Source: Polyangiales bacterium
GTDB taxonomy: Bacteria > Myxococcota_A > Polyangia > Polyangiales > Ga0077539
Assembly: GCA_044229975.1 (NCBI GenBank)
Contig: JBGARZ010000017.1
Location: forward strand, 32,001 to 96,000
Reading direction: 5' to 3'
Length of the DNA stretch: 64,000 bases
Under the pieces are notes generated by a model. It was not told where the DNA came from. It made no database searches and saw nothing but the letters and a program-made list of their open reading frames with translations. Below are positions 162 to 17,756 of the stretch, one piece after another (the first letter of the stretch is position 1; every line of letters starts with the position of its first letter). Made by a program: the position numbers and the translations under genes.

Positions 162-1508
162 TCAGATCTGCGGGCAACCCGGTCCGAGGTCGCGGAGCGG
201 GATGAACATCCAGCCCTCCCGCTCGGAGCCATCCAAGAGGCGCACGTAGAAGATGCCGTCGCCACCCCGGAGCGTGCTGCTCGCCCGGAGCACGCGCACC
301 TCCGGGTTGGAGCCCACCTCCTCGGACCCCGCGCGCGTGACGGTCTCCGTCGGCCGGAGGTGGAACGAGGTGTAGGTCTGGTAGAGGCACCGTCCCGCGT
401 CGTTTTCATCGGCGCCGCCCGTCTCTGCGCGTGCCGACGGGGTCGTCGCGGCGCTGGGAACGGCAGCCGGACGCGGCACGCCCTCAACGGCGACCTCCGC
501 GATGCAGAGGTCCGACCACCGCGCGCCCGGCCACACCGCCTCGGCCACCAGGCGCACCGTCGACCCGACGGCGTGAAGGTGTTCGAACGTCACCTCTCGA
601 TCGTCCTCGGCGACGTCGAGACGGGCCACTGTATGACCGTCGACCTGAAGCTTCACGCGGCGTAGGTGCGCGTTTCCCAGGAACAGGTCCTCGCCGTGCC
701 CCGAGACGTGGTCCCAGCCAGTGGACACCGTGACGCGCTGAAACTCCGTCAGCGTGTCGAACGACGCCTCGATCCACTCACCCCTTCCGTGCCCGTGGGC
801 GGCCTCGTTCCACGCCGTGGCAGGGTCGCCGTCGAACGCGAGCTCGGGCGGGTACCGCCGGTCGCGGGCGGCGATAAACGTCGACGCCCGAACCGACGTC
901 GGCGCAAGCCCGCGGACAGCCTGTGGTGCCTCGCCCAGAGCAAACCCACAAGGCGCGACCTCCTGGGCGGTCAGGAAGGCGTATCCGTCGGCGCCGTCGC
1001 CCGACGTGTGGATGCGGAACATCTGACCTCTCCCGTGGCGCAACGTTCCGCGCCGGCCGACCTCGACTTCGGTCCCGACCGGGTACTCGCTCCCGGTCGG
1101 TGCGGCCGTCTCGGTGGGTCGGAGGTGAAAGGCAGTCGCGCGCACAATCCGACAGGCGGCCGACTGTGGCGGCACGACGACCGGGACGGGCGGAGGCGTC
1201 GGGGGTTCGGGTGAAGGCGTCGGAGGAGCGGGTGGTGCGAACGTCAGGGGCACCCGCGACGGCGGCGGGTTGTACTCGTCGACCGCGCCGCTCGCTCCTC
1301 GCTCGGCGGCGGGCGGACTCGACGACGGTGAATCGTCGGCGCCCGTCGGCTCCTGGTCCGAGAGCGACGCTGGACCCGTAGGCGTCGGCGCACCCGCGAT
1401 CTCGCGGGCCCCCAAGAGAAACACTCCGAGGACTCCTGCGACCCACGGCAGGGCGTAGCGCACCCCCGTCACTCCAGCGGCTTTGCCCTGCGGTGATCGG
1501 CTGGACAT
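162..1508 (-). CDS. Exported protein: N-terminal TM/signal, Pro-rich linker, two SH3b-like repeats flanking a discoidin/NADase-type glycan-binding domain
   Basis: Start trimmed to ATG 1508 (MSSRSPQG). Hydrophobic LPWVAGVLGVFLLG; repeated FHLRPTET motif; discoidin-like AFDGDPATAWNE...GEWI...DLCIAEV. Confidence 0.65.
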   Translation of the reverse strand: MSSRSPQGKAAGVTGVRYALPWVAGVLGVFLLGAREIAGAPTPTGPASLSDQEPTGADDSPSSSPPAAERGASGAVDEYNPPPSRVPLTFAPPAPPTPSPEPPTPPPVPVVVPPQSAACRIVRATAFHLRPTETAAPTGSEYPVGTEVEVGRRGTLRHGRGQMFRIHTSGDGADGYAFLTAQEVAPCGFALGEAPQAVRGLAPTSVRASTFIAARDRRYPPELAFDGDPATAWNEAAHGHGRGEWIEASFDTLTEFQRVTVSTGWDHVSGHGEDLFLGNAHLRRVKLQVDGHTVARLDVAEDDREVTFEHLHAVGSTVRLVAEAVWPGARWSDLCIAEVAVEGVPRPAAVPSAATTPSARAETGGADENDAGRCLYQTYTSFHLRPTETVTRAGSEEVGSNPEVRVLRASSTLRGGDGIFYVRLLDGSEREGWMFIPLRDLGPGCPQI

Positions 1509-1661
1509 CGTCGCCACCGTACGTCCGTGGAGCGCTTCGTGGAAGCGCCAGTGAACTCTGGCCAGGGGACTCGACGGCCCTCTTGCAGCGGGCGTATAAA
1601 CGGCCGCGGGGGCGCTGGCCCTCTGTTCCCCGTGTCGTCTCGATCCACGGAGTCCGAGCCC

Positions 1662-3143
1662 ATGGCCTCCCTCGCTTCCACCGACTGGTTCGGCTCCTAT
1701 CGGGCGTCCCTGCGCGCCGATCGAACCCATTGGACCGCGGTCTGGCTCTACGGCTCTCTCTGCGCCATCGGCGCTCTCTCACCCGTCGCTGGCGCGGTGC
1801 TCCTGACCTTCTTCGCCTTCTGCGCCTCCCTGCGGGTGCTGTTGCGGAACGGTTGGTTGCTCGCGCTCATGGCCGGCGCCGCTGCCGCAAGCACCTTCTT
1901 TCCGCCCCTCGGGGTCCTCCTGGCGCTCGTCGCGATCTACTTCCTGTTGCGCAGGATCGCCTTCATCTTCGAGAACATCCGGGTGATCGGGTTGGGCCTG
2001 CTCGTCTACGGCGTCGCGGTCGGGGCGATGCTCGGTGCGGACGAAGCCGCGCGCGCCGCGCTGGAGTGGACTGCCGTGCCCGCGCTGCAAGACGAGACGG
2101 TTCGGCATGTCCTGGCCGGGCTCGGGGCGGGGGCGCTCACGAGCGCCCTCATGCACGACGTACTGGTGACGACCTACAAGCGCGGCTACACGACGGCGAA
2201 GGCGCTGGAGATCATGTCGATGATCCCGCTGCTCCTCCTCAGCCTGCTGCTGCCGCTCCTCAAGCTGCATTTCAGCGTGGAGGTCCCGGCCGGACCGGGC
2301 TTCCACGGCCTCGACGGGCTGCACCACGGGTCGCCGGACCTCCATGGATACGGCGCGGTGGGGGAGGCCGTGCCCGAGGCAATGGCCGCGGGACAGGCGG
2401 CCGGGCTCGGTCGCTTCGTCCACGGTCCCCTGGCGGCAGAGCCGTCGATGGGGTTCCACGCGGCACCGCACGGCGCGCTTCACGCCGTGGACGGTCACCT
2501 CGGCGCGCCCGAGCCGCTCGCGCCCCATTTCGCGGGGGCTGCAGCCGCTCACCCCTTGCCCGGGTTCCCGCCTCCCCTGCACGCGCCGGAGCCGCAGTTC
2601 CACCCCGCGGCACCCATGCACGTCGGACCTGCGGTCCCGTCCGCCGTCGAGCCGTTTCATCCGCTCCCCGTCGCGACCGCGCCACACCCCTTCGTTCCGG
2701 CCTCTGCGCCGTTCGTCGCACCATCGCAGAACTTCGTGCAGATGATGACGGCCGACGGCCCGGTGGTCGTCCACCACTTCGGCCTGGACACCTCGTTCCA
2801 GCACGTGGGAGCCGGCGCGCCGCCGCCGATACACCTGCACCATCCGATCGCCGGGTCAGACACCCTGAGCCAGGGCCACGTCGTTCACGCCCACATCGAT
2901 CACGGACCCGGCGGCGACGTGCTCCACGACGGGATGTCTTCTTTCGGCGGAATGCGCATCACGGCGGGCCCTGATGGCTTCCACCACCTCGTCGGCCCGC
3001 AGGGGCTCGATCTGGTGCGCGGGCACGTGGTGAACGGTCAGTGGCAGATCACCGACATGCGTCCCGGGATGCACCCCACGTATCTTCCTCAGTCCGGTTC
3101 GCTCTCTTTTTCGGAGGTGCTCATCGGGCTCAGGATCGTCTGA
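1662..3143 (+). CDS. Multi-pass membrane protein with His/Pro-rich C-terminal region
   Basis: ATG 1662 (MASLAST); about 6-7 hydrophobic segments in the first 200 aa, then a low-complexity His/Pro/Gly-rich tail. Confidence 0.65.
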   Translation: MASLASTDWFGSYRASLRADRTHWTAVWLYGSLCAIGALSPVAGAVLLTFFAFCASLRVLLRNGWLLALMAGAAAASTFFPPLGVLLALVAIYFLLRRIAFIFENIRVIGLGLLVYGVAVGAMLGADEAARAALEWTAVPALQDETVRHVLAGLGAGALTSALMHDVLVTTYKRGYTTAKALEIMSMIPLLLLSLLLPLLKLHFSVEVPAGPGFHGLDGLHHGSPDLHGYGAVGEAVPEAMAAGQAAGLGRFVHGPLAAEPSMGFHAAPHGALHAVDGHLGAPEPLAPHFAGAAAAHPLPGFPPPLHAPEPQFHPAAPMHVGPAVPSAVEPFHPLPVATAPHPFVPASAPFVAPSQNFVQMMTADGPVVVHHFGLDTSFQHVGAGAPPPIHLHHPIAGSDTLSQGHVVHAHIDHGPGGDVLHDGMSSFGGMRITAGPDGFHHLVGPQGLDLVRGHVVNGQWQITDMRPGMHPTYLPQSGSLSFSEVLIGLRIV

Positions 3144-3209
3144 GTGGCCGACGCGATGGGTGACGCGCCGGGGAGGCGTCGGTCAGTTCCCAATCAACGA
3201 AGGACCGCC

Positions 3210-4142
3210 ATGAAAGCCGCGCTGATCGAACTCTGGATCGACCCGACGCAGGACCCTTCGCCCGAACCTCGCACGTTCTCAGCGGTGCTCCAGGACACGC
3301 TCCGCCGCGCGGCCCTTGATCGGGATCGAGTGGTGAAGACGGCTCTCGCTCAGGCGGTGGCAGACGGGGCCGAGTGGATCGTGTTCCCCGGGTGGACGGT
3401 GGTCGGCACGAGCCCCCCGCCCTGGCTGTTGAACGCCTCACGGGGGCGCACGATCGTCTGCGAGTGCCTCCACCCCGACGGGACGGCTACCAAGGAGAAC
3501 CGCACCCGACCAGCGGCCAGCAAGGAGCGCCGCATCCCCGACCGAGCGGCTGGCGCGGTGGACGAGGCCCCAGCACCGTGGCCGTCGTGGACGACGTACC
3601 TGCTCAAGGATGGCAAGGTCGCGGTCACGGCGACACAGCGCTTCGCGAGGGCGAGCGACCGCGCCGCCGGGAGCGCGGCGCTCCTCGGAGACCTGACAGA
3701 CGGGAGTCGTTCCGACAGCGACGCCATTCTGTGGGTCTGCGGTGAGGTCGAGCTCCTCTCCGGGGGCGGGGGGCGCCGCGGCGGAGGCCCGAACCCCGTT
3801 CGCAACGAGACGAAGCACCGCGACTCGGTGCTGCGCGGCGGCGGGGTCGTCCTCAACCCGGCGCACACCCGTGCGGGGCCCCAGGCGTCGCGGGACAAGC
3901 GCGCATGGTTGTCGCGCGGCGGTTGGCTGCTCAACACGGCCAACACGCATGCCAGGGGCTGGACCTTCTGGGGTGTCGACAAGGAGGGGCAGTTCACCAC
4001 CTCGTACACCGCCGGGGTCTCCCACTCTGCGGCGGGAGTGTGGCGCCGGGGGAATCGCCTGGTGGGCAAGCCGAGGGCGTCCGTGGCGCCGATCGAGGGG
4101 CTGGTCGGCTCGAACTCGATCACCTGGGTCGACATGAGCTGA
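3210..4142 (+). CDS. Hypothetical protein, divergent carbon-nitrogen hydrolase (nitrilase) fold
   Basis: AGGA SD before ATG 3210; GAEWIVFPGW resembles the LIVFPE motif and WVCGE resembles the ICYD nucleophile motif. Confidence 0.5.
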   Translation: MKAALIELWIDPTQDPSPEPRTFSAVLQDTLRRAALDRDRVVKTALAQAVADGAEWIVFPGWTVVGTSPPPWLLNASRGRTIVCECLHPDGTATKENRTRPAASKERRIPDRAAGAVDEAPAPWPSWTTYLLKDGKVAVTATQRFARASDRAAGSAALLGDLTDGSRSDSDAILWVCGEVELLSGGGGRRGGGPNPVRNETKHRDSVLRGGGVVLNPAHTRAGPQASRDKRAWLSRGGWLLNTANTHARGWTFWGVDKEGQFTTSYTAGVSHSAAGVWRRGNRLVGKPRASVAPIEGLVGSNSITWVDMS

Positions 4143-4359: not shown

Positions 4360-4647
4360 ATGGACATCGGATCACGCACTACGAAGAGGGTGGAAGAGGG
4401 CGGATTCAAGCAGGCGTCGCGCAACGGGTGGCCTTCCATCACCCGCAGATGGAGGCATATCGCCGGGTGGAACGCTGGAGAAGTTGCCGCTCGATCGGGG
4501 CGGGGCCCGACTGCTGTTCGTCGTGGCAGGGATCGTCGTGACCGTCTGAAGCGAGCGGTCACTGCAGAGCGTGTCGAGTACCTCCCGCGTCACGCCGCAC
4601 ACGTGTGCCGTGTTGCTCGGGACACGCTTCTTTTTTCGGTCTTTTGA
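4360..4647 (+). CDS. Possible small HTH-like protein or remnant
   Basis: AAGGAG SD before ATG 4360; GWNAGEVAARSGRGPTAVRR resembles a sigma70 region-4/HTH helix pair. Confidence 0.3.
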   Translation: MDIGSRTTKRVEEGGFKQASRNGWPSITRRWRHIAGWNAGEVAARSGRGPTAVRRGRDRRDRLKRAVTAERVEYLPRHAAHVCRVARDTLLFSVF

Positions 4648-4700: not shown

Positions 4701-6269
4701 ATGGCGGTCTCATACGATCAGGTTCACGCGCTGGTGAAGGCCGACACGGCGGTGCTTCACATCGCTTCCTTCGAGTGGGAGCGGGTCCGGGGGTGGTGCA
4801 TCGGGCTCGCGCGCGACCTCGCGCTGCCGCTCAAGGTCTGGAGTTCGTCGTCGGGACTCCAGCGCCCCCGCGGCGACGGCTGGGAGACAGAAACCGAGGA
4901 CACTGATCCCATCGCCGTGATGGCGGCGCTCCGTGAGTCGAAGGAGGGCGGCGTGCTCCTCCTTGAGGACATCCACCCCTACCTCGAACCCCAGCACCAC
5001 GCCGTCACGCGCTACGTCCGCGAGATGGCTCGCTGCGGGGCCGAACCGCGGCGGTTGCTCGTCCTGTCGACGCCGCTGCCCGGGCTCCCGCCCGAGTTGC
5101 AGAAGGAGGTCCCCACGATCGACCTGCCCCTACCGGGCGTCGATGAATTGCAGGAGGTCGCCCGCCTCGTCGCCGAGGCGCACGTGGTGCCCTTCGAACC
5201 GAGCGATGCCCTCTTCGCCGCGGCGCGCGGCCTGACGGTGATGGAGGCGCGGGTCGCCTTCGGGATGGCGGCCGTGCAGGACGGGCGCGTCGGCGCCAAC
5301 GCGATTGGCATGGTGGCGCGCGAAAAGGAGCGTGTGATCCGCCAGAGCCAGGTGCTCGAATACTTCGAGCCGGACGCGGGCATGGCGGACGTCGGGGGCC
5401 TGGAGAACCTCAAGCGCTGGCTCGACCGGCGCGGCCGCGCGTACGGGCCGGGCGCGCGGAAGTACGGCCTCGACGTCCCCAAGGGCGTGCTGCTCCTCGG
5501 GGTGCAGGGCTGCGGCAAGAGCCTCGTCGCCAAGGCCGTCGCCGCGTCGTGGGAGTTTCCGCTGCTGCGGCTCGACCTGGGGAAGGTGTTCGGCGGCATC
5601 GTGGGGCAGTCCGAAGGAAACGTCCGCGCGGCACTCCAGATGGCGCAGGCGCTCGCCCCCTGCGTGCTCTGGATCGACGAGATCGAGAAGGGCCTCGCGG
5701 GCGTGGGCAGCTCCGACCAGACGGACGGGGGCACGACCGCGCGCGTGGTGGGCACGCTGCTCACGTGGATGCAGGAGAAGCGCGAGCCCGTCTTCGTGGT
5801 CGCGACGGCCAACCGCGTGGACATGCTCCCGCCCGAGCTGCTGCGGAAGGGGCGCTTCGACGAGCTCTTCTTCGTCGACCTCCCCACGCACGCGGTGCGC
5901 AAGGAGATCCTCAAGATCCATCTGGTCAGGAAGAAGCGGAAGCCGAAGGACTTCGACCTCGAAGAGCTCGCCCGCTTGTCGGTCGGCTACTCGGGGGCGG
6001 AGCTGGAGGAGGCCGTGCGCGAGGGGCTCTTCGAGGCCTTCGCGGAGGGGCGCGAGGTCACGACGGAGCACATCGCCGTCGCCCTCCAGGGGACCTTTCC
6101 CCTCTCACGCACCATGGACGAACAGATCGGCGCCTTGCGGCGGTGGGCGCGGGTGCGCGCGCGCCTTGCCAGTTCCGATGAGCCCGAGGCGCTGCCCGAG
6201 CAGACGCAGTCCGCGCCGAAGCTCCGTCAGGAAACTCGCAACCCCTTCGTCCCAGAGGGTACGCGATGA
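4701..6269 (+). CDS. Ycf46-like AAA+ ATPase (degenerate N-terminal AAA module plus active C-terminal AAA)
   Basis: Walker A GVQGCGKS, Walker B VLWIDEIEK, SRH ATANRVDMLPPELLRKGRFD; GGAGG SD. Confidence 0.92.
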   Translation: MAVSYDQVHALVKADTAVLHIASFEWERVRGWCIGLARDLALPLKVWSSSSGLQRPRGDGWETETEDTDPIAVMAALRESKEGGVLLLEDIHPYLEPQHHAVTRYVREMARCGAEPRRLLVLSTPLPGLPPELQKEVPTIDLPLPGVDELQEVARLVAEAHVVPFEPSDALFAAARGLTVMEARVAFGMAAVQDGRVGANAIGMVAREKERVIRQSQVLEYFEPDAGMADVGGLENLKRWLDRRGRAYGPGARKYGLDVPKGVLLLGVQGCGKSLVAKAVAASWEFPLLRLDLGKVFGGIVGQSEGNVRAALQMAQALAPCVLWIDEIEKGLAGVGSSDQTDGGTTARVVGTLLTWMQEKREPVFVVATANRVDMLPPELLRKGRFDELFFVDLPTHAVRKEILKIHLVRKKRKPKDFDLEELARLSVGYSGAELEEAVREGLFEAFAEGREVTTEHIAVALQGTFPLSRTMDEQIGALRRWARVRARLASSDEPEALPEQTQSAPKLRQETRNPFVPEGTR

Positions 6270-9200
6270 AAACCCTCTACTTCCACGCCGTCGCCGCCAA
6301 CCCCCGCGTGGCCCACGCGCTGATGTTCCAGGTTGGCAACGTGCTCCGTCCGTTCCGCCGCTTTCTGGGGCAATCGATCTTCGCGGCCCGCGAGCGGCAG
6401 GTCCGCTATCAGCTCCCCTGGAAGCCGGTACCGAACCCTGTGGGGCTCGCGCTGACGGCACGCGACACCCGCATCCGGCTGCGGCGCCCGCCGCCCCGCT
6501 GGCTCTTCTCCGACTGGCCCGCCGCGCGGCCCTTCGACCTGACGCAGCCGCTCATGGTGGTGAGTCGCAGCGTGAACGTCCGGGTGCTCACAGCCGAGCA
6601 CACCCCCGATGGTCTGCGCGTCGAACCCGAGTCTCCCCTCTTCGCCGATGACACGGTCTTCTGGGGTGGTCGTGCCTGTCCGGTGCAGTCCGGGGATGCC
6701 TCCGGGCCACCGCGCACGATCGCGACGGTCGACGGCCACGCGCTCACGCTCCGTACCCCCTTCCACGAGGACGAGGGGGCGTGGTCGGCCACGATCGACG
6801 TGAGCTTCGACGGCGCCGAGCTCCTGGCCGACGGCCAACGGGTCGCGGTCAGCGTCTGCTCCGCGCTCGACGGGGTGACGCGGCTCTACGACGCGGCGGG
6901 GCGCCCGTTCGAGCTGCGCGACGGCGTCTTGAGGGTCGACGAGCTGCCGGCCGAAGGGCTCCTCCGAGCCGACAACGGCGTGCGCTTCGTCTGGCGGTCA
7001 CAAGGCCGGGGCGGGTCGCGTGGACGGTGCGTGCAGTTGCTCGCGCCCCCGAGCGCGCTCGGCGCGGACGACACTCTCGACCCGCGGGCGGCCTTCTGCG
7101 ACGACGACGTGAAAGAGGTCTGGACCCAGGCGCGCCACCACGCCGACACGACCATCAAGGTCCACCGGGTCGACCGCGAGCGGTACCAGCTCACGCTCGA
7201 CCGGCTGCCCCCGGCGGACGCGCTGCTCTACCTGCCGCTCGACCTGCGCACCCTGCGCCTCCAGCAGAGGGCGCTCGCGCAGCTCGCCGACGCTCCGCTC
7301 CCCCACCACGCCCCGCTGCTTCGTCTCTGCGAGGAGCCCGCGAAGGTGCGCTGGCCCGCCGCGGCGCCGCGCTGGCCGAGCCGATGGTACTCGCTCCAAG
7401 ACGAGAGCCGCAGCGGCACCGATGAGCAACGGCGCTTCGTCGCGAAGGCTCTGGGGTCGCCCGACTTCGCGTTCCTGGAGGGGCCGCCGGGGTCGGGCAA
7501 GACCACCGCGATCTGCGAGCTCATCCAGCAACTCGTCGCCGACGGGCAGCGCGTCCTGCTCTGCGCCTCGACGCACGCCGCGATCGACAACGTTCTGGAG
7601 CGTTTGCTGGTCGACCCCGGCGCGCTCGACGCAGTTCGCATCGGGCGCGCCGAGCGCGTCGACGACGCCGTGCTGGGCAGTCAGCTCGATCGCCGGGTCG
7701 AGGCGCTGGTCGGCGCGTGGCGGGGGGTGGGGGCCTTCGCGACGGCGGGCGACGGCGAGCTCCGCGAGATGGCCGAGCGCACCGTCATGATGTCCGCCAA
7801 CCTCACCTGCGGGACGACCATGGGTATCCTCGGCCACCCGCTCTTTCGCGAGCGCAACGGCGCGCGGGACGACCAGCCGGTCGCGACGTCCCCGCACTGG
7901 GACGTGCTGATCATCGACGAGGCCAGCAAGACGCTGACGCAGGAGTTCCTCGTGCCGGCGCTCCTGGCGCGGCGGCACGTCATCGTCGGGGACGTGCGGC
8001 AGCTCCCACCCTTCAGCGATCGCGCCGACGTCGTCGCCAACCTCCGCTCGCTCGCCGACCCGCGCGGTCGCGAGCTCTTCGCGCGCGACCACCAGCGCGC
8101 GATGCTGGTGCTGTTTCGTCTCCGTCGCGAGGCCCTCCGAGCGGCCGGGCTCCGCTGGCTCGTGGCGGAGAGCCCGGGCGTGATCGAATGGATCGTGCGC
8201 GAGCTCGACGCGATGGAGTCGCCGCCCTTCACGACGGCGCGTGTGGTGTCGCGGGTCGGCCGGTCGCCGCGCCACGTCGTCGAGGTGACGACCGACGAGG
8301 TGCTCGCGGGCGCCACACGCGCGCTGCACCTCGCGGCGGCGGAGGTCGTGCTGGTCGGCGAAGACCTCCTCGCGGCGGTCGCGGCCCGGCTCCCCGGCGA
8401 CCTCGCGCCCGCGTGCGACCTCACGGCAGGAAAGGCCGGCCTCGCGGAGTCCGACCCGTGGCTCTTCCGGCACGCGGCGTGGGTCGGCGCCGGGGGCCGC
8501 CTGTCGCGTAGCTACCAGGAGCGCCGGGACGAGATCGCGACCGCGGCGGAGGCCGAGCGCCACGAGCAGCGCTGGCTCTTCGAGCACGACCTGGCCAACG
8601 AGCTGGCGTGGCGCATCACCCGGCTGCACGAGTTGCGTCGGAGCGGCAACCGGTCCGAGCGCGGGCGCCTCCAGCGCGACCTCGCGCGCCTGAAGCCCGG
8701 GGCCGCCGACGTCGACGGTGCCATCGCCGAGATCCAGGACATCGGACTCCCGAGCGTGTTGGAGGTGTTGCAGGAGGGCATCGGCGCCGATCGGGCGGAG
8801 CGGCGCGGCGCGCTCACCGAGGGCCTGGCGAGCCAGGGCGAGGTGTTCGCCGCCCGCTTCGAGCGCCTCTCGTACCAGCACCGCATGCATCCCGAGATCT
8901 CGGCCTTTGCGCGCGAGAATTTCTACGACGGCAACGCTTTGCGCGATGCCAACACCATCGCCCAGCGCGACGCCGACCTCGGGTGGGATTACGGGACCTT
9001 CGGGCGTCGGCGGGTGTGGGTCGACGTCGACGGCCGCGACCAGCAGGGCATCAACACCGACGAGGTGCGGGCGATGCGGGGCGTCCTGGAGGACTTCGTG
9101 CGGTGGGCGAAAGGCCGTCCGCCGCCCGCCCGCCCGTCGTCGCCGCGCTGGGAGGTGGCGTGCCTGTCGTTCTACGCGAAGCAGGAGGGGGCCCTCGCGG

Positions 9201-9517
9201 AGATGCTGGGCGCGCTTACCGGCGACGTCCGGAAGACTCGCTTCCAGTGGCAGGGCGTAGAGATCGTGTGCGGCACGGTCGACCGGTTCCAGGGGCGCGA
9301 GGCAGACCTGGTGCTGCTCTCGCTGCGCAACACCCACCGCGTGGGCTTTCTGGACAGCCCGAACCGGCTGAACGTGGCCGTGACCCGCGCGCGACAGCAG
9401 CTCGTCGTGCTCGGGCGCGCGAGGTACTTCGAGGGCTGCGGGACCCCGGAGCTCGAAGCGTTGGCGAATCGGACCGAGCGCCAGGACGGGCGCCGTTGGG
9501 CGGGAGGACGACGATGA
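6266..9517 (+). CDS. Superfamily 1 (UPF1/DNA2-like) helicase with long N-terminal region and internal insertion
   Basis: GPPGSGKT, LIIDEAS, VGDVRQLPP, QHRMHPEI, TVDRFQGREAD, NRLNVAVTRAR; ATGA overlap with upstream stop. Confidence 0.92.
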   Translation: MKTLYFHAVAANPRVAHALMFQVGNVLRPFRRFLGQSIFAARERQVRYQLPWKPVPNPVGLALTARDTRIRLRRPPPRWLFSDWPAARPFDLTQPLMVVSRSVNVRVLTAEHTPDGLRVEPESPLFADDTVFWGGRACPVQSGDASGPPRTIATVDGHALTLRTPFHEDEGAWSATIDVSFDGAELLADGQRVAVSVCSALDGVTRLYDAAGRPFELRDGVLRVDELPAEGLLRADNGVRFVWRSQGRGGSRGRCVQLLAPPSALGADDTLDPRAAFCDDDVKEVWTQARHHADTTIKVHRVDRERYQLTLDRLPPADALLYLPLDLRTLRLQQRALAQLADAPLPHHAPLLRLCEEPAKVRWPAAAPRWPSRWYSLQDESRSGTDEQRRFVAKALGSPDFAFLEGPPGSGKTTAICELIQQLVADGQRVLLCASTHAAIDNVLERLLVDPGALDAVRIGRAERVDDAVLGSQLDRRVEALVGAWRGVGAFATAGDGELREMAERTVMMSANLTCGTTMGILGHPLFRERNGARDDQPVATSPHWDVLIIDEASKTLTQEFLVPALLARRHVIVGDVRQLPPFSDRADVVANLRSLADPRGRELFARDHQRAMLVLFRLRREALRAAGLRWLVAESPGVIEWIVRELDAMESPPFTTARVVSRVGRSPRHVVEVTTDEVLAGATRALHLAAAEVVLVGEDLLAAVAARLPGDLAPACDLTAGKAGLAESDPWLFRHAAWVGAGGRLSRSYQERRDEIATAAEAERHEQRWLFEHDLANELAWRITRLHELRRSGNRSERGRLQRDLARLKPGAADVDGAIAEIQDIGLPSVLEVLQEGIGADRAERRGALTEGLASQGEVFAARFERLSYQHRMHPEISAFARENFYDGNALRDANTIAQRDADLGWDYGTFGRRRVWVDVDGRDQQGINTDEVRAMRGVLEDFVRWAKGRPPPARPSSPRWEVACLSFYAKQEGALAEMLGALTGDVRKTRFQWQGVEIVCGTVDRFQGREADLVLLSLRNTHRVGFLDSPNRLNVAVTRARQQLVVLGRARYFEGCGTPELEALANRTERQDGRRWAGGRR

Positions 9518-10647
9518 GATGTGTGCTGACGGATGACGTCCCGGTCGAGCGCTTCGCGGCGTGCGCAGAGCTGGCGTGGCTGGAGCGCCGGCCCGAGCTG
9601 GGGGCCCTCTGCCGGGCGGCGCGGGACGCCGGGCGCCGCATCTCCGTGGAGGTGGTGTCGGCCGCGCTCCCCGGCGTGGCCGCGGCGGGAGCGAAGAACG
9701 TCGTCGCGTGGTGCCGCGCGTTGGCGCTCTGCGACGAGCACGGCGGTCTCACGCAACTGGGCGACACGGTGGCGAAAGACGACGAGGCGCCCGTGTCCGA
9801 GCAGGGGGTCTTCGACCTGTGGTTCGTCTCGCACCCGCTCCTCGGCGCCCGCGCGCTGCACGCCGAGCGCATCACCGCGAAGCAGGACGGGCGCTTCGAC
9901 GAGATCGTCCTGTTGCCGACGCCGCCGACGCGGGCCGCGGTGTTCCGTTCGGGCGTCGAGCCTGCGAATCGCTTCGTGGTCCGCGCGTGGCTGCCCGCCG
10001 ACGCGGCGCCCGCGGGTCAGCGCCGTGACACCGCCGCGCACTGCCGGGTGCGCTGGACGATGGACTTCGCGAGGGGCCGTGAGCAGTTCACGCTCGACGG
10101 TGCGATCGATGGCACGCGCGGCGCGAACCGCCCGCTCCGACACGAGGCGGAGCCCGCTGACGTCGATCTCGCGAGCGTGCTCCGCGCCTGGGCGGCCGGA
10201 CCGCTGGCGGCCTTCGGCCGGTGGGACGAGGCTCAGGAGCGCCTGGCGGTGCGCTGCGAGGCGCTCTCGGTGGACGAGCAGGAGCGTTTCGCGAAGAGCG
10301 TGCGGCTGCCGGAGGTGACGGTTGCCGGGCGCGGCACCTGGAGGAACGTCACGTTGGAGGACGTCCCGATCGGCCCGGCGACGGCCGACGACGCGACGCA
10401 TTGGGCGGCCGCGCGCCTCGACCGCCGACTGCGCCGCGAGCGCCGCTACCGCACCCGCGCCGACGTGGGCGCGCTCTTCGCCTCCGTCACCGCCGGGACG
10501 GCGCTCGAAGCGCATCGTCCCGTGCTCGCCCCGCACGACGAGCTCCTGGTGCAGTACGCGCTCGCGCCCGCGGTGTTCTGGGGCCTCGCCGCGCCCGCCG
10601 ACCTCGCCCCGACCGACCCCGACTCGAATCTGGAGGCCATGCGATGA
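9514..10647 (+). CDS. Hypothetical protein, possible N-terminal winged-HTH
   Basis: GGAGG SD and ATGA overlap at 9514; in-frame part of ORF 8608..10647; ALALCDEHGGLTQLG resembles a wHTH wing. Confidence 0.75.
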   Translation: MRCVLTDDVPVERFAACAELAWLERRPELGALCRAARDAGRRISVEVVSAALPGVAAAGAKNVVAWCRALALCDEHGGLTQLGDTVAKDDEAPVSEQGVFDLWFVSHPLLGARALHAERITAKQDGRFDEIVLLPTPPTRAAVFRSGVEPANRFVVRAWLPADAAPAGQRRDTAAHCRVRWTMDFARGREQFTLDGAIDGTRGANRPLRHEAEPADVDLASVLRAWAAGPLAAFGRWDEAQERLAVRCEALSVDEQERFAKSVRLPEVTVAGRGTWRNVTLEDVPIGPATADDATHWAAARLDRRLRRERRYRTRADVGALFASVTAGTALEAHRPVLAPHDELLVQYALAPAVFWGLAAPADLAPTDPDSNLEAMR

Positions 10648-12644
10648 AGTTCCAAGGACCGATCCTGGCGCGGGTGCCGCGTCGTCGTGCCGAGGACCGC
10701 CGCGAGGTGCGGCTCCCGACGGTCTGGGTGCGCGACGGCCGCGAGCCCTTGCTGCCGGAGACGACCGTGTTGCGGTGGGACGCCGGCGACCTGGCCGCGC
10801 CCGTGATCGCGGGCGACACGGTGATCGTGATGCTCTCGGGCGACTGCGCGAGCGCGTCGAGCACTCTGCTCGCGGCGGCCCGGGCGGGCAAGCGGGTCTA
10901 CGTGCTGGCGGCGCCGGGATGGGGGGCGGGGGCGCTCGCGTCGGTGCCGCGCGGCCGCGTGCTGGTGCGCCATGTCGAGGGCCTCCCCGCGACGGCGCTC
11001 TGGAGCGCGGCGGACGCCTTCGTCTGGACCAGCGGCACGTCCGGGGGGGCTTCCTGGCGACTGACGCTCACCGCGCCGCAAGCGCACGCGCTGCGCCTCG
11101 CCATGCTCCGTCTCTTCTGGCACCACGGGCTCGCCGAGGCTTGGAACGACGAAGGTGCCCTCGTCTTCCAGGCCTGTGCGGAGCGTCCGTTCGACGTGCC
11201 CGAGGCGACGAGCGAAGTGCCCATCCAGCTCGTCGCGCGAGGCGCGGCGTCGCCTGCGCTCGCGGGCGACACGGTCTACCTCCCAGGGTTCGCGCCACGT
11301 CCGCATGTGGCCGTGCGCGCGTGGCTGCCGCCGTCGGGGAACAATCACGCGGGCCTCGCGGCGCTGAGGGCGGCGGGCGTGGAGGTGGTCTGGCACGACC
11401 TCGACCTCCCAGCGTGCGGGCTCGCGGGCGACGCCGGTGAGCTGCGCGCCGCGTCGCCGCAGTGGACGCTGTCCGTCGCGCTCGACGCCGCGCAGCGCGA
11501 CGACCTGCGGGAGATCCTGGCGACGGAGGCTCCCTGGCGCTTCCTCACGAACGCATCGCTGGGGGATATCGACCGCTCCCCAGACGTCGTGGTGTGGCTG
11601 CCGGGGTCGAACGCCGCCGCTTCGCTACGCGCGCTAGAGACGCTCGACGCGGGCGAAACCCCGGCGGATTCCCTCCGCGGCTGCGCGACGACCGAGCCGG
11701 TCGCGTTGCCCGCCCCGTCGCCGCTGTCGCTGCGGGTAGAGTGGCAGTGGGGAGTGCGGCCGCCGAGCGCCCCCGCGACCTCGTCGGACGACCCGCTCGT
11801 GCAGGCGTGGCGGCGCTTCGATGCGAGCTTCCGGGCGCGGGTCGAGCTCGCGCGGCGGGCGGTCGACGGTGCGACGACCCGCGCGGAGGGGTTGGGGCGA
11901 AGCTTCGAGTCGCTGCGCGCGGCGGTGCTCGGCTTTAACCGCGCGGGCGTCGACCTCGGCGACCGCCTCGTGCCGCTCGGCGCCCTGACCCCGTCGGCGG
12001 TTGGACCCGACGTCGCTTCCTCCGCGCTGGCGGAGTTGCGCGCGATCGAGGGCGAGGTCGCCGAGCTGCAGCGCGGGTTGAACGCCGAGGAGGCCCGGGC
12101 CCGCGAGGCGCGGGACCGCGAGGAGCAGCGCGATGCCTTCGAGCAGAAACAGGCGGACGACCGTGCCACGCTCGACGCTCACGAGCAGGAGCTGGAGGCG
12201 AAGTCCGCGGCGCTCGCGGAGAAGGAGAAGATTCTCGCCGAGATCGAGGCGAGCCCGAGCCCCGGGCTCAAGGAGAAGGACCGCAAGGCGTCCCTGAAGA
12301 GCTACGGCGACGACCTGCGACGGCTCAAGCCGCGCGTTGACCGGCTGCGTGAGTTGATCGAAGAGGGGAAGCGAAAGCTCGAAGAGTCCTTCGTCTACCG
12401 CCCGAACGCCGTCGTCGGGGGAGCGCCCGCGGGTGGCCGCGCGGCGGGGGCGGCGTTTGTTCCTGCTGCCGGGACGAGCGACGACCTGCGCGCGCCGATG
12501 GACCCGCTTCCGTCGGTCGGTCGGCTCGTGGTGGCGGGCAAGCAGCGCTACCTCGGGATCAGGAACTGGGAGGATCTCGACGTCGCCGAGCGGGAGGCCG
12601 TGCGCCTTTCGGCGCGCCTGGTCGCGGAGGTGGCGGCGCCGTGA
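10644..12644 (+). CDS. Hypothetical protein: two degenerate PLD-like halves plus long coiled coil
   Basis: GGAGG SD and ATGA overlap at 10644; AARAGKRVYVL...RVLVRH and LRAAGVEVVW match the PLD nuclease scaffold but there is no HxK; E/R/K-rich coiled coil at about 11850-12380. Confidence 0.72.
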   Translation: MKFQGPILARVPRRRAEDRREVRLPTVWVRDGREPLLPETTVLRWDAGDLAAPVIAGDTVIVMLSGDCASASSTLLAAARAGKRVYVLAAPGWGAGALASVPRGRVLVRHVEGLPATALWSAADAFVWTSGTSGGASWRLTLTAPQAHALRLAMLRLFWHHGLAEAWNDEGALVFQACAERPFDVPEATSEVPIQLVARGAASPALAGDTVYLPGFAPRPHVAVRAWLPPSGNNHAGLAALRAAGVEVVWHDLDLPACGLAGDAGELRAASPQWTLSVALDAAQRDDLREILATEAPWRFLTNASLGDIDRSPDVVVWLPGSNAAASLRALETLDAGETPADSLRGCATTEPVALPAPSPLSLRVEWQWGVRPPSAPATSSDDPLVQAWRRFDASFRARVELARRAVDGATTRAEGLGRSFESLRAAVLGFNRAGVDLGDRLVPLGALTPSAVGPDVASSALAELRAIEGEVAELQRGLNAEEARAREARDREEQRDAFEQKQADDRATLDAHEQELEAKSAALAEKEKILAEIEASPSPGLKEKDRKASLKSYGDDLRRLKPRVDRLRELIEEGKRKLEESFVYRPNAVVGGAPAGGRAAGAAFVPAAGTSDDLRAPMDPLPSVGRLVVAGKQRYLGIRNWEDLDVAEREAVRLSARLVAEVAAP

Positions 12645-12856
12645 AGGAGCAACGCATCACCGTCAACATCGACGGATCCGGCGCGCTGCACGCCGACGCC
12701 GAGGGGTTCTCCGGGGACACCTGCGTGAAGGACCTGGAGCGGCTGCTCGAAGGGCTCGCGTCGGGCGTCGAGCGCATCGACCGCAAGCCCCAGGTGCCGG
12801 ACGCGAGCGTGGTCGCGCGCGGCGCGACGCGGGTCGCGACCGGGAGGAAGCCATGA
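12641..12856 (+). CDS. DUF2997 family protein
   Basis: ITVNIDGSGALHADAEGFSGDTC signature; GTGA overlap. Confidence 0.8.
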   Translation: MKEQRITVNIDGSGALHADAEGFSGDTCVKDLERLLEGLASGVERIDRKPQVPDASVVARGATRVATGRKP

Positions 12857-13359
12857 GCGCCTACGTCACGCTGGCGGTCCCGCTCACCGACGAGTCCACG
12901 CTCCTCGCGGCGCTGGCGGAGCTGGGCTTCGGTCCCGCGAAAGTCGAAGTGCACGCCGAGGCGGTCGCGCTGGTGGGCTACGGCGCCGACGCGCGCGCGC
13001 AGCGGGCGCACGTGGTCATTCGCCGACAGCATCTGGGCTCCGCGTCGAACGACGTCGGGTTCGAGCGGACACCCACCGGCTACCGGGCGCATGTGAGCGA
13101 GTACGACCAGGGACGTTTCGGGAGTGGTTGGATGGGCCAACTGCGCGCGGCCTACGACCGCCACGACGCTGCGCGGCTGGAGGCGCTGGCCGCGGAAGAG
13201 CGCCGACGCGAGGAGGAGCGGCGAGCGGTCGAGCGGCGCGCGCTGGTCGAGGCGCAGCGGCAGATGGTACTCGCGAAGGCCGCGGCGCTCGGCTACCGGG
13301 TGGAGGAGACGCGCGAGGGCGAGCGGGTGCGGCTGGTACTGCGAAAGCGGGTGTATTGA
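12853..13359 (+). CDS. DUF1257 (Ycf35-like) domain protein
   Basis: LLAALAELGF...LVGY...AHVVIRR...SNDVGFER...YRAHVSEYD; ATGA overlap at 12853. Confidence 0.8.
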   Translation: MSAYVTLAVPLTDESTLLAALAELGFGPAKVEVHAEAVALVGYGADARAQRAHVVIRRQHLGSASNDVGFERTPTGYRAHVSEYDQGRFGSGWMGQLRAAYDRHDAARLEALAAEERRREEERRAVERRALVEAQRQMVLAKAAALGYRVEETREGERVRLVLRKRVY

Positions 13360-13931
13360 TGCGCCCGGGGCCGACGCTCAACGTCGCGCGGTGGGTCGCG
13401 CGGAGCCGCGTCAACGGGCCCGGCGAGCGCTTCGTGCTGTGGGTGCAGGGGTGCGCGATCCGCTGCGCTGGCTGCTGGAACCGCGACACCTGGAGCCACG
13501 TGCCTCGCGTCAGGATGACGGTTGACGAGGTGCTTCGCGAGGTCGACGCGGCGAGCGGGATCGACGGGGTCACGCTCACGGGCGGCGAGCCATTCGAGCA
13601 GGCGGAGGCTTTGCTACCGCTGGCTGAGGCGCTGCGTGCGCGCGGGCTCTCGGTGATGGCGTTCACCGGGCGGGAGCCCGCCGAGCTGTCGGGTCCGGCG
13701 GAGCGTGCGTTGATTGCGTGTCTCGACGTGCTCGTCGTGGGGCGCTACGAGGCGGCGCAACGCTCGTTGGACCTCGGGTGGAGGGGCTCGCGCAACCAGC
13801 AGATCCGGTTCCTCACGACCCGGCATGACGAACGCGATCTCCCCGCGGGCCGCGAGGCGGAGGTCCACCTGTCGCCCGACGGCGCCATCGTCGTGATGGG
13901 CTTTCCTGAGGCGGGACTACTGTCGGTTTGA
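13359..13931 (+). CDS. NrdG-like radical SAM (4Fe-4S single cluster) protein
   Basis: NGPGERFVLWVQGCAIRCAGCWN (CxxxCxxC), GVTLTGGEPFEQ, WRGSRNQ; TGATG overlap. Confidence 0.9.
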   Translation: MRPGPTLNVARWVARSRVNGPGERFVLWVQGCAIRCAGCWNRDTWSHVPRVRMTVDEVLREVDAASGIDGVTLTGGEPFEQAEALLPLAEALRARGLSVMAFTGREPAELSGPAERALIACLDVLVVGRYEAAQRSLDLGWRGSRNQQIRFLTTRHDERDLPAGREAEVHLSPDGAIVVMGFPEAGLLSV

Positions 13932-14223: not shown

Positions 14224-16749
14224 TTAGGTTTCGATGACGACCGGAACACCAGCCTGCTGCGCGACCGGCGTCCAGATGTCGGCGTCGACGTCCGGCGTCT
14301 CGATGGAGACGACGAGCGCGTAACGCGCGCCCTGTCCGCTGCGGTCACGCTTCGGCAGATCCTTCCACCATCCGCTCACCGGGTAGATCCCGATCACGCC
14401 GCGCTCGGCGATGTCGGCCGCGGAACCTTGGAGGACGTCCGAGTGGACGGAGCCATGACTGCGAGCCTGTTCACCGAGGAACCACTCGGAGGAATTGCCC
14501 CCCGCTGAAGGCCGATCCTCATCCTCATCGAGGGCAAGCTGGTTGAGACGCTTGCGAAAATCCTCGACTAGCTCAGTCGGGCCTTTCACCTCGAAGCGAA
14601 GTCCGTGTGACGCGTAGCGGTGCCGCTTTTTCCAGCCACGTCGCCCTGGGTTCGGCTCGATGAAGTAGGACAGCGTCACGCGCAGGCGGACGGACGCCGC
14701 CCCCAGGGCGTGGAGTACGTCGTTTGGCCAGGGCAGCTCAAAGAAGTGCATCTCGCGCATCGTTCCCTGCGCGAACGGCCGGATGCTGCCCTGCACGATC
14801 AGTGTCAGCGCGTTGCCCGCACTCCGCAACGCACGGTCGATGTGCGGGACGCCGAATCCGTAGCGGCGCACGACTCTCAAGCGGGCACGCTTGCCGCCCG
14901 CAGCGTGGAGGTAGGCCAGCATCCGCGGGGTCCACTCGGCCGAGTGCACGATGAGCGCCCGCACGGCCTCGGGCCATAGGGTCGGGTACTCCGCCGCGAT
15001 CATGGCGGCCATGCGCGCGGCCTGCGCCGTCGCCGCGCTGGTCGCCCAGCTCAGCGCGAAGGGCTTCAGCGCGGGTCGGTAGTACGTCGTGAGCACGCTG
15101 AGATCGGCGCACGGGAAATCGATCGTCCCCTGCGTGTCCTTCACGACGTTCCCTCCTTCGAAGACGACGTCCGGCTTGATCGGCCAGGCCTCGGCGAAGG
15201 TGACCCCGGTGGTGCTCCACGGCGAGAGGTCGCCCCCGCGCGCGACGGGGCTCCATCCGCTCATTTTCGGATCACTGATCAACGCTTTGTCGGTGAACGC
15301 CCCGACCGTGAGCGCGTTCCAGGCCTGCGCGGGGTCGTGGACGGCATCGGCGTCACTCCGATCGAGGTGCGCGACTTCCAGCGCGTCGGCGTCGACGTTT
15401 CCGGCGCTCACGATGAACAAGCGGCGCAGCGGCTCCTCCCCGTCATTGAGATACACGAGGCCCTGGCTGCTCGCGTCGAACGAACGCCCCGCGGCCAGCG
15501 CGTCGATCGACGCAGACCATGACGTCGGTTGTCCTCGGTCGCGCTCATCAGTCGCGGTGATGGCCATCGAGAAGCATCGGCGGCGCTCTGGCGCTTGGAT
15601 CTCGACCCGGCTCGTCGCCTCCGCCGTGACGGCGCCGTACACCTCGGGCGCGTTCTGTCCGGTCGGCGGCAGAATCTTCACCGACTCAAGGACATGGCGA
15701 AGCCGCACCTGTCCGGAGCCGGTCAGCATCGGAGTGAGGTCGCCGTACAGCGCGAGGCCAGCCATCTCGGTGCCGTGTCCCTGGTGATCGTGTGTGCCCC
15801 ACGAAGGATCACAAGCGTGGCAGTCCTTGGCTGCGAGCGCGAGCGCGAGCAGCGGATGCCCCTGCGACACGCCGGTATCGAGCACGCAGACCGAGGGCGC
15901 CGCGGCCCCAGGCGCTGTCGTCCTCGCGAGCAGATCCTTGGCCCAGTTGGCTTGCTCGTGGCCGCCCAGGTCAACGAAGAAGGTCGGAGTCTCCTTGGCG
16001 CGTCGCAGCTCCGCGAGGTCGTTCAACACGTCGATGGACGCGGCGAGCTGCTCTGCCGTCGCGCGGACCAGCGTGACGATGCGGTCGTCGAACTGCAGGC
16101 GTCGCGGTGCCACATCAATGTGCCGGAGTTCGGCGAACTCCATCAACCGTGCGAGCTCGTTGCCGTCCTGCCGACGCAACCAGACCTCCCACCAGATGCT
16201 CTCGTGCTCGGGCGGGTACACATCGCTCGCATCCGTCCAGAGGCTGCGAAGGGTGGCGAGCCTCAGCGCGGCCACCGGGTCCAGCATCCCTTCGTGGCGC
16301 TTCTCGCCCTTCGCCTTCGGCCCGCTCTTCGCGTAGCTCTCGAAGCGGTCGATAAAGTGCTTCACCTTACCTTCGGGGACGAAGACCGTGGCGCGCTCCA
16401 CGCGACGCGGCTGAGCTCCGTCGCTCAGCGAGTGGCTCACCGCGACGAGCTCGATGCCCTGGGCAGCGTTCTCGAACGATGAGAGCTGCAGTGACTCGCC
16501 TGGCTGACTCTCGAACTGCACGTAGAGCCCGGGCGATGCGCCATGCACCTCGATCTCGGTTGCTTCGCGGCGCTGGAGGGCCTCTACCACCGCTGACTCG
16601 AGAGCGCTCTTGAGCGCCCTACCATGAGCCTTCCTGCTCTCGGGAGCTGGAACCTTGCGGATGTCGAACCTACGCCTGTGCGGCCGGTACGGCTCGGTCG
16701 TGGGTGGGCTCGAAACGGTGATGTGCTTGCGGTTGCGAGGTGAGACCAC
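14224..16749 (-). CDS. ietS: S8 family subtilisin-like serine protease (IetS/Y4bN type)
   Basis: Triad motifs VLDTGV, GHGTEMAG, ATSAATA; VSAGN, DPAQAWNALTVGA, IKPDVVFEGGN; directly downstream of an AAA ATPase. Confidence 0.85.
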   Translation of the reverse strand: MVSPRNRKHITVSSPPTTEPYRPHRRRFDIRKVPAPESRKAHGRALKSALESAVVEALQRREATEIEVHGASPGLYVQFESQPGESLQLSSFENAAQGIELVAVSHSLSDGAQPRRVERATVFVPEGKVKHFIDRFESYAKSGPKAKGEKRHEGMLDPVAALRLATLRSLWTDASDVYPPEHESIWWEVWLRRQDGNELARLMEFAELRHIDVAPRRLQFDDRIVTLVRATAEQLAASIDVLNDLAELRRAKETPTFFVDLGGHEQANWAKDLLARTTAPGAAAPSVCVLDTGVSQGHPLLALALAAKDCHACDPSWGTHDHQGHGTEMAGLALYGDLTPMLTGSGQVRLRHVLESVKILPPTGQNAPEVYGAVTAEATSRVEIQAPERRRCFSMAITATDERDRGQPTSWSASIDALAAGRSFDASSQGLVYLNDGEEPLRRLFIVSAGNVDADALEVAHLDRSDADAVHDPAQAWNALTVGAFTDKALISDPKMSGWSPVARGGDLSPWSTTGVTFAEAWPIKPDVVFEGGNVVKDTQGTIDFPCADLSVLTTYYRPALKPFALSWATSAATAQAARMAAMIAAEYPTLWPEAVRALIVHSAEWTPRMLAYLHAAGGKRARLRVVRRYGFGVPHIDRALRSAGNALTLIVQGSIRPFAQGTMREMHFFELPWPNDVLHALGAASVRLRVTLSYFIEPNPGRRGWKKRHRYASHGLRFEVKGPTELVEDFRKRLNQLALDEDEDRPSAGGNSSEWFLGEQARSHGSVHSDVLQGSAADIAERGVIGIYPVSGWWKDLPKRDRSGQGARYALVVSIETPDVDADIWTPVAQQAGVPVVIET

Positions 16750-16769
16750 GCGTCATGCTCCTCGATGCG

Positions 16770-17756
16770 TTAGCCGTGCGCGCCGCGCCGCTCCCCGAGA
16801 GCGACCGCCAGCGACGCGGCTCGAACGACGATCGAGTGGTCGAGGATCGAGTTCTTCGCCGCCTGCTCGCAGGCCATCACGATCTCCGCGTGGCTGAGGT
16901 CGGCGGCGGCCGTGGCCGCCGCGCTCCAATCGATGTCCGACGTGTCGAGCAACCCGAGGCGCGACCGCATCACTCGCTCGGCGATGTCCGACGTAGGCAG
17001 CGCGTACTCAAGCGTTGCGTCGAAGCGGCGGAAGAGCGCGCGGTCGAGCAGACCGACGTGGTTGGTCGCGCCAAGCACGAGACTATCCGACTCGTCCTGC
17101 TCAAGAAACTGGAGGAACGAGTTGAGCACCCGTCGAATCTCGCCGACGTCGTTCTTCGCGCCGCGCTCGCCGCCGAGCGCGTCGAACTCGTCGAACAGGT
17201 ACACGCCGCGTGTGGACTGGATCGCGTCGAACACGAGCCGCAGCTTGGCCGCGGTCTCGCCCATGTACTTCGTGATGAGGCCATCCAGCTGGATGCTGAA
17301 GAGCGGGAGCCCCAATTCGCCCGCGAGCGCCGCCGCGGTCATCGTCTTACCGGTGCCAGGCGGCCCCACGAGAAGGAGCTTCCGCATCGGCGCGAAGCCA
17401 TGCCCCCGGATCCGCTCGCGCTGCTGCTGCTCGTTCAGGACGCGGTCGAGGCGGGCTCGGAGCACGTCAGTCAGCGCCATGTCGGCGACGCGTGTCTTCG
17501 GGTAACCGACCGTGAGGAGCCCGGCCAGCTCGCCTCGCGGTTGGGCCAGCGGCACAGGCTTTGGGCCTCGTGCAGGCTCGACCGCGTGCGTGCGCGTCTT
17601 CACCTGATCGACGAGCTCGCGTAGCTCCTGGGCGAACTTGCCGTGCCCTCCCCGAGCCGCCTGAGCCGCGACCTGCATGGCGATCGCGTAGAAGCGCGCG
17701 TCGTCGCCATCTGCATGACTCCGGATGAGCGCTTTGACTTGGTCCGCGGTCGCCAT
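16770..17756 (-). CDS. ietA: AAA ATPase (IetA type)
   Basis: GPPGTGKT, YLFDEFD, NDVGEIRRVLNSFLQ, LDRALFRRFD; paired with S8 protease. Confidence 0.85.
   Translation of the reverse strand: MATADQVKALIRSHADGDDARFYAIAMQVAAQAARGGHGKFAQELRELVDQVKTRTHAVEPARGPKPVPLAQPRGELAGLLTVGYPKTRVADMALTDVLRARLDRVLNEQQQRERIRGHGFAPMRKLLLVGPPGTGKTMTAAALAGELGLPLFSIQLDGLITKYMGETAAKLRLVFDAIQSTRGVYLFDEFDALGGERGAKNDVGEIRRVLNSFLQFLEQDESDSLVLGATNHVGLLDRALFRRFDATLEYALPTSDIAERVMRSRLGLLDTSDIDWSAAATAAADLSHAEIVMACEQAAKNSILDHSIVVRAASLAVALGERRGAHG

Follow-up and report, generated by a model that had tools for sequence, protein, structure and literature searches.

Seven genes in a 64-kb segment of contig JBGARZ010000017.1, from a Polyangiales bacterium, form one conserved unit of two modules. 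The first is a trio of helicase, winged-helix and phospholipase D (PLD) genes; the second comprises a p97-like ATPase, a DUF2997 protein, a DUF1257 protein and an NrdG-like radical S-adenosylmethionine (radical-SAM) protein. Positions are those of the whole 64-kb segment, here called the window, and the cassette occupies 4701-13931. On balance, the cassette probably serves in defence against phages or plasmids, with the trio as sensor and the AAA/DUF/radical-SAM module as a switch and motor leading to growth arrest, because its spread is patchy, its flanks change and carry defence genes, and its design resembles that of Mokosh and CoCoNuT systems. A widespread, uncharacterised core is now tied to the type of helicase module that can be assayed by phage plating, so that what Ycf46/Ycf35/DUF2997 and an orphan activase do becomes testable.

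Layout of the cassette

The sequence-only reading of this DNA had described seven genes joined by six overlapping stop/start codons, and all of the open reading frames (ORFs) and junctions stand where it placed them. Each ORF (Table 1) is free of internal stops, with a third-position G+C content of 0.87-0.93, and the junctions read ATGA at 6266, 9514, 10644 and 12853, GTGA at 12641 and TGATG at 13357-13361. Across five contigs of the source genome, overlaps of 1 or 4 bases occur in 270 of 1422 co-directional pairs (19%, computed with a simple gene caller) and none of 167 six-junction runs overlaps throughout, so the cassette's six in a row lie above background. In relatives, 4-base overlaps are kept at junctions 1 to 5 in 54/61, 73/79, 65/75, 60/65 and 63/63 cases, counts biased toward agreement since start codons were picked with the window proteins as guide; the junction between DUF1257 and radical SAM overlaps in just 20 of 58. 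Upstream, a terminator-like hairpin with a T run (4609-4636, plus strand) lies about 70 bases 5' of the gene 1 start and could be either the end of an upstream transcript or an attenuator of the cassette; no sigma70-like promoter was found upstream of the cassette.

The family labels of the sequence-only reading hold to differing degrees. Pfam AAA, AAA_11/12 and Fer4_12/Radical_SAM match above their cut-offs and confirm the AAA, superfamily 1 (SF1) helicase and radical-SAM labels, while structure models and fold searches uphold the winged helix and the dead PLD with coiled coil. The names DUF2997 and DUF1257 are supported by orthologues, which pass the Pfam cut-offs in 4/5 and 2/2 cases; the window proteins themselves fall short, gene 5 having no Pfam match and gene 6 scoring 21.1 against a cut-off of 22.2 bits.

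Table 1. Features of the cassette and of its surroundings in the window
Feature	Length (residues)	Position	Strand	Basis or remark
Gene 1: AAA+ ATPase	522	4701..6269	+	Pfam AAA, AAA_lid_3; PDB p97/Cdc48 D2
Gene 2: UPF1-like SF1 helicase	1083	6266..9517	+	Pfam AAA_11/12; PADLOC MkoA; PDB
Gene 3: elongated winged-helix protein (CnuE-like), short form	377	9514..10647	+	Orthologue model, fold search
Gene 4: tandem PLD-fold protein without HKD	666	10644..12644	+	Model, HHalign
Gene 5: DUF2997 protein	71	12641..12856	+	Alignment, Pfam match of orthologues
Gene 6: DUF1257 (Ycf35-like) protein	168	12853..13359	+	Pfam, alignment
Gene 7: NrdG-like radical-SAM activase	190	13359..13931	+	Pfam Fer4_12, Radical_SAM
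IetS-like S8 peptidase and IetA-like ATPase		14224-17756	-	PADLOC; below NCBIfam cut-offs
NADase-type discoidin domain protein		162-1730	-	Upstream of cassette
ORF without Pfam or PADLOC match		~1662-3143	+	Upstream of cassette
ORF without Pfam or PADLOC match		3144-4142	+	Upstream of cassette

Conservation and distribution

An alignment search with gene 3 homologues gathered 44 genome and 55 metagenome loci, of which 86 remained once 12 duplicates, and one locus in which gene 3 is missing, had been removed. All seven genes are visible in 43 of the 86, many others stopping at a contig edge. Where non-redundant loci have enough flank on both sides, 35 of 39 keep the seven genes in identical order, the exceptions being L089, where DUF1257 is split in two, L032 and L048, with no adjoining radical-SAM gene, and L051, where the trio stands alone. 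Record titles place the loci mainly in Myxococcota, and also in Planctomycetota, Actinomycetota (Streptomyces) and Candidatus Sumerlaeia; proteobacterial labels come from metagenome bins only and are unchecked. Conserved gene order across phyla, which had been proposed as a check on the unit, is thus present. The spread is nonetheless patchy: one of the eight genomes in the genus and three of 60 relatives hold strong matches, and of 301 genomes from the phylum nine (about 3%, the source genome counted) carry the cassette itself, the other eight apparently being contigs already in the locus set and not added to its counts. The cassette-type DUF1257 subfamily is found in 10 of the same 301 genomes, nine times beside the trio and once at a contig start.

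The helicase trio

The gene 2 helicase matches the PADLOC MkoA profile at E 1e-77 from profile position 529 onward; kinases align to positions 5-282 of the same profile, so the match lies outside the kinase part, and Pfam finds no Pkinase domain on gene 2. Its solved relatives in the PDB are UPF1, SMUBP-2 and DNA2, and its helicase motifs are kept in 25-30 of 30 orthologues. The N-terminal region (about 1-330) has no domain assigned to it, and a long insertion lies between the RecA lobes.

Gene 3 was modelled from a 555-residue orthologue of the long form, with a pLDDT score (predicted value of the local distance difference test) of 92.7. The model has a winged helix-turn-helix (wHTH) domain at 25-90, with a middling Z of up to 7.6, and at 393-540 a PLD domain resembling that of MITD1 (Foldseek E 1e-4; Z 11.2, root-mean-square deviation 2.8-2.9 over 133-135 aligned residues). 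This C-terminal domain is predicted to be of MITD1 type and nuclease-like. Its conserved DRY (58/59), H[DA]R (57/59) and W..NS (57/59) motifs recall in their order those given for the MITD1-like nuclease at the C terminus of DruE in Druantia type III, namely DRY, HxR and Ser (10.64898/2026.05.13.724313). Direct comparison of gene 3 with one DruE-like neighbour protein gave no sequence match, and a search of gene 3 for HEPN gave none either, its C-terminal domain being MITD1-like or missing. Long forms make up 59, and short forms 17, of 76 complete relatives. The window gene 3 ends before the MITD1-type domain and is a short form. At least five changes between short and long states are forced on a quick tree, and since the window's four-member clade includes one long form, L009, loss of the domain is likely in the window copy.

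Gene 4 was modelled with a pLDDT of 88.1. A pair of PLD domains is followed by a helical bundle with coiled coil at 384-580 and, at 620-661, by a small conserved domain at the C terminus. The fold matches the PLD family (Z 14.1, deviation 3.5 over 239 aligned residues), HHalign pairs it with an active two-HKD PLD (98.7%, E 3e-16), and the HxKxxxxD motif is present in none of 68 gene 4 proteins; by predicted fold and profile, then, gene 4 is homologous to the two-HKD PLD but dead. The active family comprises 622 clusters at E<=0.001, and among the best 150 of these 622, two HxK..D-like motifs occur in 108, one in 41 and none in 1. On a quick tree of 48 rows a branch with full support sets all dead forms to one side, with those linked to TerY-P genes apart from those linked to the core and L051 within the latter group; the order of events is read from a midpoint root only.

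Pfam, PADLOC, NCBIfam and PDB sequence searches with genes 3 and 4 gave only coiled-coil noise, and the ESM Atlas held no usable match for the gene 4 tail. That tail was considered as a core-specific tag and ruled out, as it also occurs in trios without the core. Inspection by eye of four sequences from each family showed no C-terminal tag common to the seven proteins. On the contig of L038 (L166:3024-5172), DUF1257 is duplicated and an extra ORF with the gene 4 tail domain lies between gene 4 and DUF2997.

The ATPase and radical-SAM module

Gene 1 combines a degenerate N-terminal half with an intact C-terminal ATPase module of the p97/Cdc48 kind, its best solved relatives being p97/Cdc48 D2 (E 1e-70, PDB sequence search). 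Walker A, RKGRFDE and the C-terminal tail are kept in 30/30 orthologues and the exact LWIDEIEK in 26/30. The tail motif, PxLxQExxNxF (6216-6254 in the window, 30/30 orthologues), is likely a binding peptide. Gene 1 is presumably of Ycf46 type, a label that goes by linkage to DUF1257/Ycf35 and that no search returned. PLuB_AAA (NF040671) was rejected as an identity, the match being far under cut-off and none of the papers listed for it being relevant.

The small gene 5 protein carries a conserved G22-F23-x-G25-x-x-C28, seen as GFxxxxC in 36/36 aligned sequences and as GxxGxxC in 11/11 distant DUF2997 homologues. Gene 6 adds a charged helical extension to the DUF1257 domain and opens with Met-Ser in 36/36 aligned sequences (12853-12858 in the window), which echoes the MSH start noted for Ycf35 (PMC13060386). 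An ESM Atlas search with DUF1257 returned unnamed clusters and one DUF2997-rich cluster, which are leads only. Gene 7 has CxxxCxxC and GGEP, both motifs recurring in 35/35, and scores 104.9 bits against NrdG (TIGR02491), below the cut-off of 126.1. No NrdD or other glycyl-radical partner is present among the seven genes, and Pfam found no NrdD in the scanned neighbours.

The modules apart from each other

Trios without the core were located by a gene 4 profile search. In L159, L160 and L161 the genes that come after a dead-PLD trio encode vWA, PP2C and kinase proteins and make up a TerY-P-type triad (L159:5114-14085; L160:5029-14467; L161:4857-14597); gene 3 is short in all three, no nuclease is recognisable, and their genomes give no match to the DUF1257 profile. 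In L172 (4038-11247), helicase and wHTH genes are followed by a 510-residue PLD with two intact HKD motifs and then by a CARF-sigma54 regulator. L173 (8413-12528) has a frameshifted gene 3 and ends likewise with a two-HKD 510-residue protein and a CARF-sigma54 regulator. This four-gene unit of helicase, wHTH, two-HKD PLD and CARF-sigma54 genes, carried by all three plasmids inspected of the four that match (L176-L178, including Vibrio and Pontibrevibacter), may represent a simpler candidate defence system. Its middle gene is homologous to gene 3 (100%), and active-PLD relatives of gene 4 match MkoB at 6e-18 and 4e-14.

The core, for its part, stands alone at the distant DUF1257 loci of the phylum sample, where the AAA gene adjoins DUF1257 with no trio between them in 18/18 and DUF2997 is detected in 9. 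The order there, AAA-DUF1257-DUF2997, is unlike that of the cassette. On two Nostoc plasmids (L174:10001-14479; L175:10001-14332), DUF2997, an AAA ATPase and two copies of DUF1257 lie amid many small hypothetical genes. The earlier idea that a helicase module had been inserted into an AAA-DUF2997-DUF1257-rSAM core is half sustained: the modules do occur apart, but the stand-alone core has a different order, and the insertion stays conjectural. One helicase trio thus appears coupled to three partner modules, namely CARF-sigma54, TerY-P and AAA/radical SAM, and in its history one nuclease was seemingly lost and another gained, then repeatedly lost, which would provide natural controls that separate sensor from effector.

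Genomic neighbourhood

Flanks of the genome loci were scanned with PADLOC for at most five proteins per locus (98 proteins from 34 loci, plus 6 from another three), a hit being E<=1e-30 with kinase and sigma54 profiles excluded; the control was 20 random regions of the source genome, where two of the four positives belong to one island. Defence-profile neighbours occur at 18/37 loci versus 4/20 random regions (Fisher p 0.047) and, per protein, in 22/104 versus 7/80 (p 0.025), figures tempered by a cut-off set after the hits were seen, by hand-picked flank genes and by a single-genome control. The defence-island enrichment proposed as a further check is accordingly modest, a tendency rather than proof. 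Flanking genes vary between loci, and the matches include CBASS cyclases in five loci as well as Sir2-HerA, Cas10, ZacB/C, DruE, TmtA, PDC-S02, PDC-S68, a methylase with SspF, and Mokosh-like genes.

In the window, the IetA/IetS-like pair converges on the cassette, as the sequence-only reading had it, although the pair falls below NCBIfam cut-offs and is not kept beside relatives: no IetS was found beside related loci among the matches listed. Its G+C content is 67.4% against 71.3% for the genome, and the pair is a chance neighbour outside the cassette. Elsewhere, L045 (922-5090, a Streptomyces record) has an MkoA-like helicase in two ORFs and an MkoB-N-like gene immediately 5' of the cassette, and a recombinase adjoins L028. 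Random regions of the source genome (L121, L122, L136) hold CBASS with HORMA and a SAVED effector, a type I methylase and SspC/D-like genes.

Function and mechanism

In a defence role, the helicase trio would act as a sensor of foreign single-stranded nucleic acid. Gene 2 would bind gene 3 and load on RNA or single-stranded DNA, as proposed for CnuH-CnuE, and gene 4, presumably a former nuclease, may now serve as a coiled-coil scaffold joining the trio to the output module. There, an AAA+ hexamer with a DUF2997/DUF1257 adaptor might remodel the complex, a role played for related helicases by the McrB GTPase or TerY-P. In what is the weakest step, the radical-SAM protein might arm or mark the complex, with the DUF2997 GxxGxxC loop as best candidate site. 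Most relatives may ultimately cut nucleic acid through the MITD1-type domain of gene 3, whereas this copy, which lacks that domain, would halt the cell by way of its ATPase/radical arm. The link between the two modules and the radical site on DUF2997 are each clearly doubtful. Taken to its boldest form, the cassette would be a nuclease-independent machine in which a coiled coil connects a dead-PLD helicase sensor with a p97-like ATPase while the activase puts a radical on DUF2997 GxxGxxC. Such a machine is quite unlikely, yet if real it would bring an effector chemistry new to defence and would give the Ycf46/Ycf35/DUF2997 core of cyanobacteria and red-lineage plastids its first biochemical role.

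Several observations weigh against a defence role or against parts of the mechanism. A defence neighbour is missing at 19/37 loci, and three of the CBASS-flanked loci are kin by tree and not independent. The operon has a G+C content of 72.8% against 71.3% for the genome and bears no sign of recent transfer. This copy and 17/76 relatives have no recognisable nuclease. The region of gene 1 that we take to be the pore loop is mostly GIVG and lacks the aromatic residue that unfoldases typically have. The radical-SAM gene is absent beside 2/39 loci (L032 and L048), and the cysteine of DUF2997, being conserved in distant homologues as well, need not be a radical site. Finally, in cyanobacteria the DUF2997-DUF1257 pair and the ferredoxin fed7 form a conserved chromosomal cluster in a stress context (PMC4284462), a link that points to stress and not to defence.

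The last point favours RNA or ribosome quality control, or stress, as the function: helicase and Cdc48-like extractor would clear damaged ribonucleoproteins or stalled ribosomes, with redox input through DUF2997/DUF1257 and the iron-sulphur protein. UPF1 and p97/Cdc48 are indeed the closest solved relatives, and the regulator that follows active-PLD relatives is RtcR-like. A housekeeping function, however, would hardly be confined to some 3% of phylum genomes and one of eight congeners amid changing, defence-rich flanks, which makes this explanation unlikely, if the strongest of the alternatives. Somewhat further from defence as set out above is the possibility that the family is armed by the gene 3 MITD1-type nuclease and that the window copy is simply disarmed. 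The domain and its motifs in 59/76 relatives and the long form L009 so close to the window copy agree with such a loss, but short forms arose at least five times with a clean overlap to gene 4, the TerY-P-linked trios are short as well, and in the window all seven ORFs and their motifs are intact; disarmament is accordingly improbable.

To class the cassette under Mokosh type I or the type III CoCoNuTs, as a subtype with accessory genes, is a still poorer fit. The MkoA match of the helicase, the MkoB matches of the active-PLD relatives and the description of CnuE type III-C as a wHTH with two PLDs (PMC11090510) would suit it. A search with the MkoB family returned mostly generic PLDs, and HHalign of gene 3 with a single MkoB-like protein, for a possible homology to the MkoB N-terminal region, gave 0.3% and, in a second comparison, 17.8% with E 0.0014. 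Against a subtype, genes 3 and 4 have no MkoB match at E<=1 in PADLOC. The text and four supplements of PMC11090510 make no mention of DUF2997, DUF1257, Ycf46 or MITD1. With the defining features of Mokosh (helicase kinase, active PLD) and CoCoNuT (McrB/McrC) missing, neither system fits, in line with the sequence-only reading, which could match the genes to no named system, and a subtype is very unlikely. A selfish addiction or mobile-element maintenance module can hardly be correct, for although active-PLD relatives and AAA-DUF1257-DUF2997 cores occur on plasmids and a recombinase lies beside L028, searches found neither a plasmid match for gene 4 nor relatives of genes 3 and 6 in viruses or phages. 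Defence thus remains the favoured function.

Comparison with known systems

Mokosh is a tested helicase and PLD design in which the PLD active site is required (10.1101/2022.05.11.491447). Like Mokosh type I, the cassette has a COG1112/UPF1-like helicase adjoining a PLD-fold gene; unlike it, the helicase lacks a Ser/Thr kinase, the HKD is lost, wHTH and PLD are split, and four extra genes are conserved. The expectation that PADLOC would name nothing here held for genes 3-6, which have no PADLOC or NCBIfam profile, and gene 2 has its MkoA match; the PADLOC models date to 2023 or earlier.

DruE resembles the long forms of gene 3, and not the window copy, in its MITD1-like fold and in motif order, but it is a superfamily 2 helicase with two fused PLD-like domains. 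The cyanobacterial and plastid Ycf46/Ycf35/DUF2997 set likewise has DUF2997 adjoining DUF1257 together with an iron-sulphur protein or AAA+ gene and a Met-Ser start (PMC4284462, PMC13060386), whereas the cassette adds the helicase trio and differs in gene order. With NrdG and glycyl-radical activating enzymes gene 7 shares a short radical-SAM fold, CxxxCxxC and GGEP; it lies under the NrdG cut-off and has no glycyl-radical enzyme encoded beside it in the cassette.

A further parallel lies in the CoCoNuTs, in which UPF1-like helicases generally precede elongated wHTH-effector genes and have TerY-P and CARF-RtcR partners (PMC11090510). As in types II and III, a UPF1-like helicase is followed here by an elongated wHTH gene with a swappable effector, a likeness of architecture only as the effector is missing in this copy, and further shared features are coiled coils, an NTPase of hexamer type within the operon, and trio relatives tied to TerY-P and CARF-RtcR. 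Unlike CoCoNuTs, the cassette has no McrB GTPase (CnuB), McrC (CnuC) or HEPN, their place being taken by the p97-like ATPase, DUF2997, DUF1257 and radical SAM, and its PLD is on its own gene and dead. No published description of the seven-gene cassette was found in the literature searched, most subscription journals lying outside its scope. To judge from sequence, the trio is thus of a kind already known in outline from the CoCoNuT work, while its union with an AAA/radical-SAM arm appears to be undescribed.

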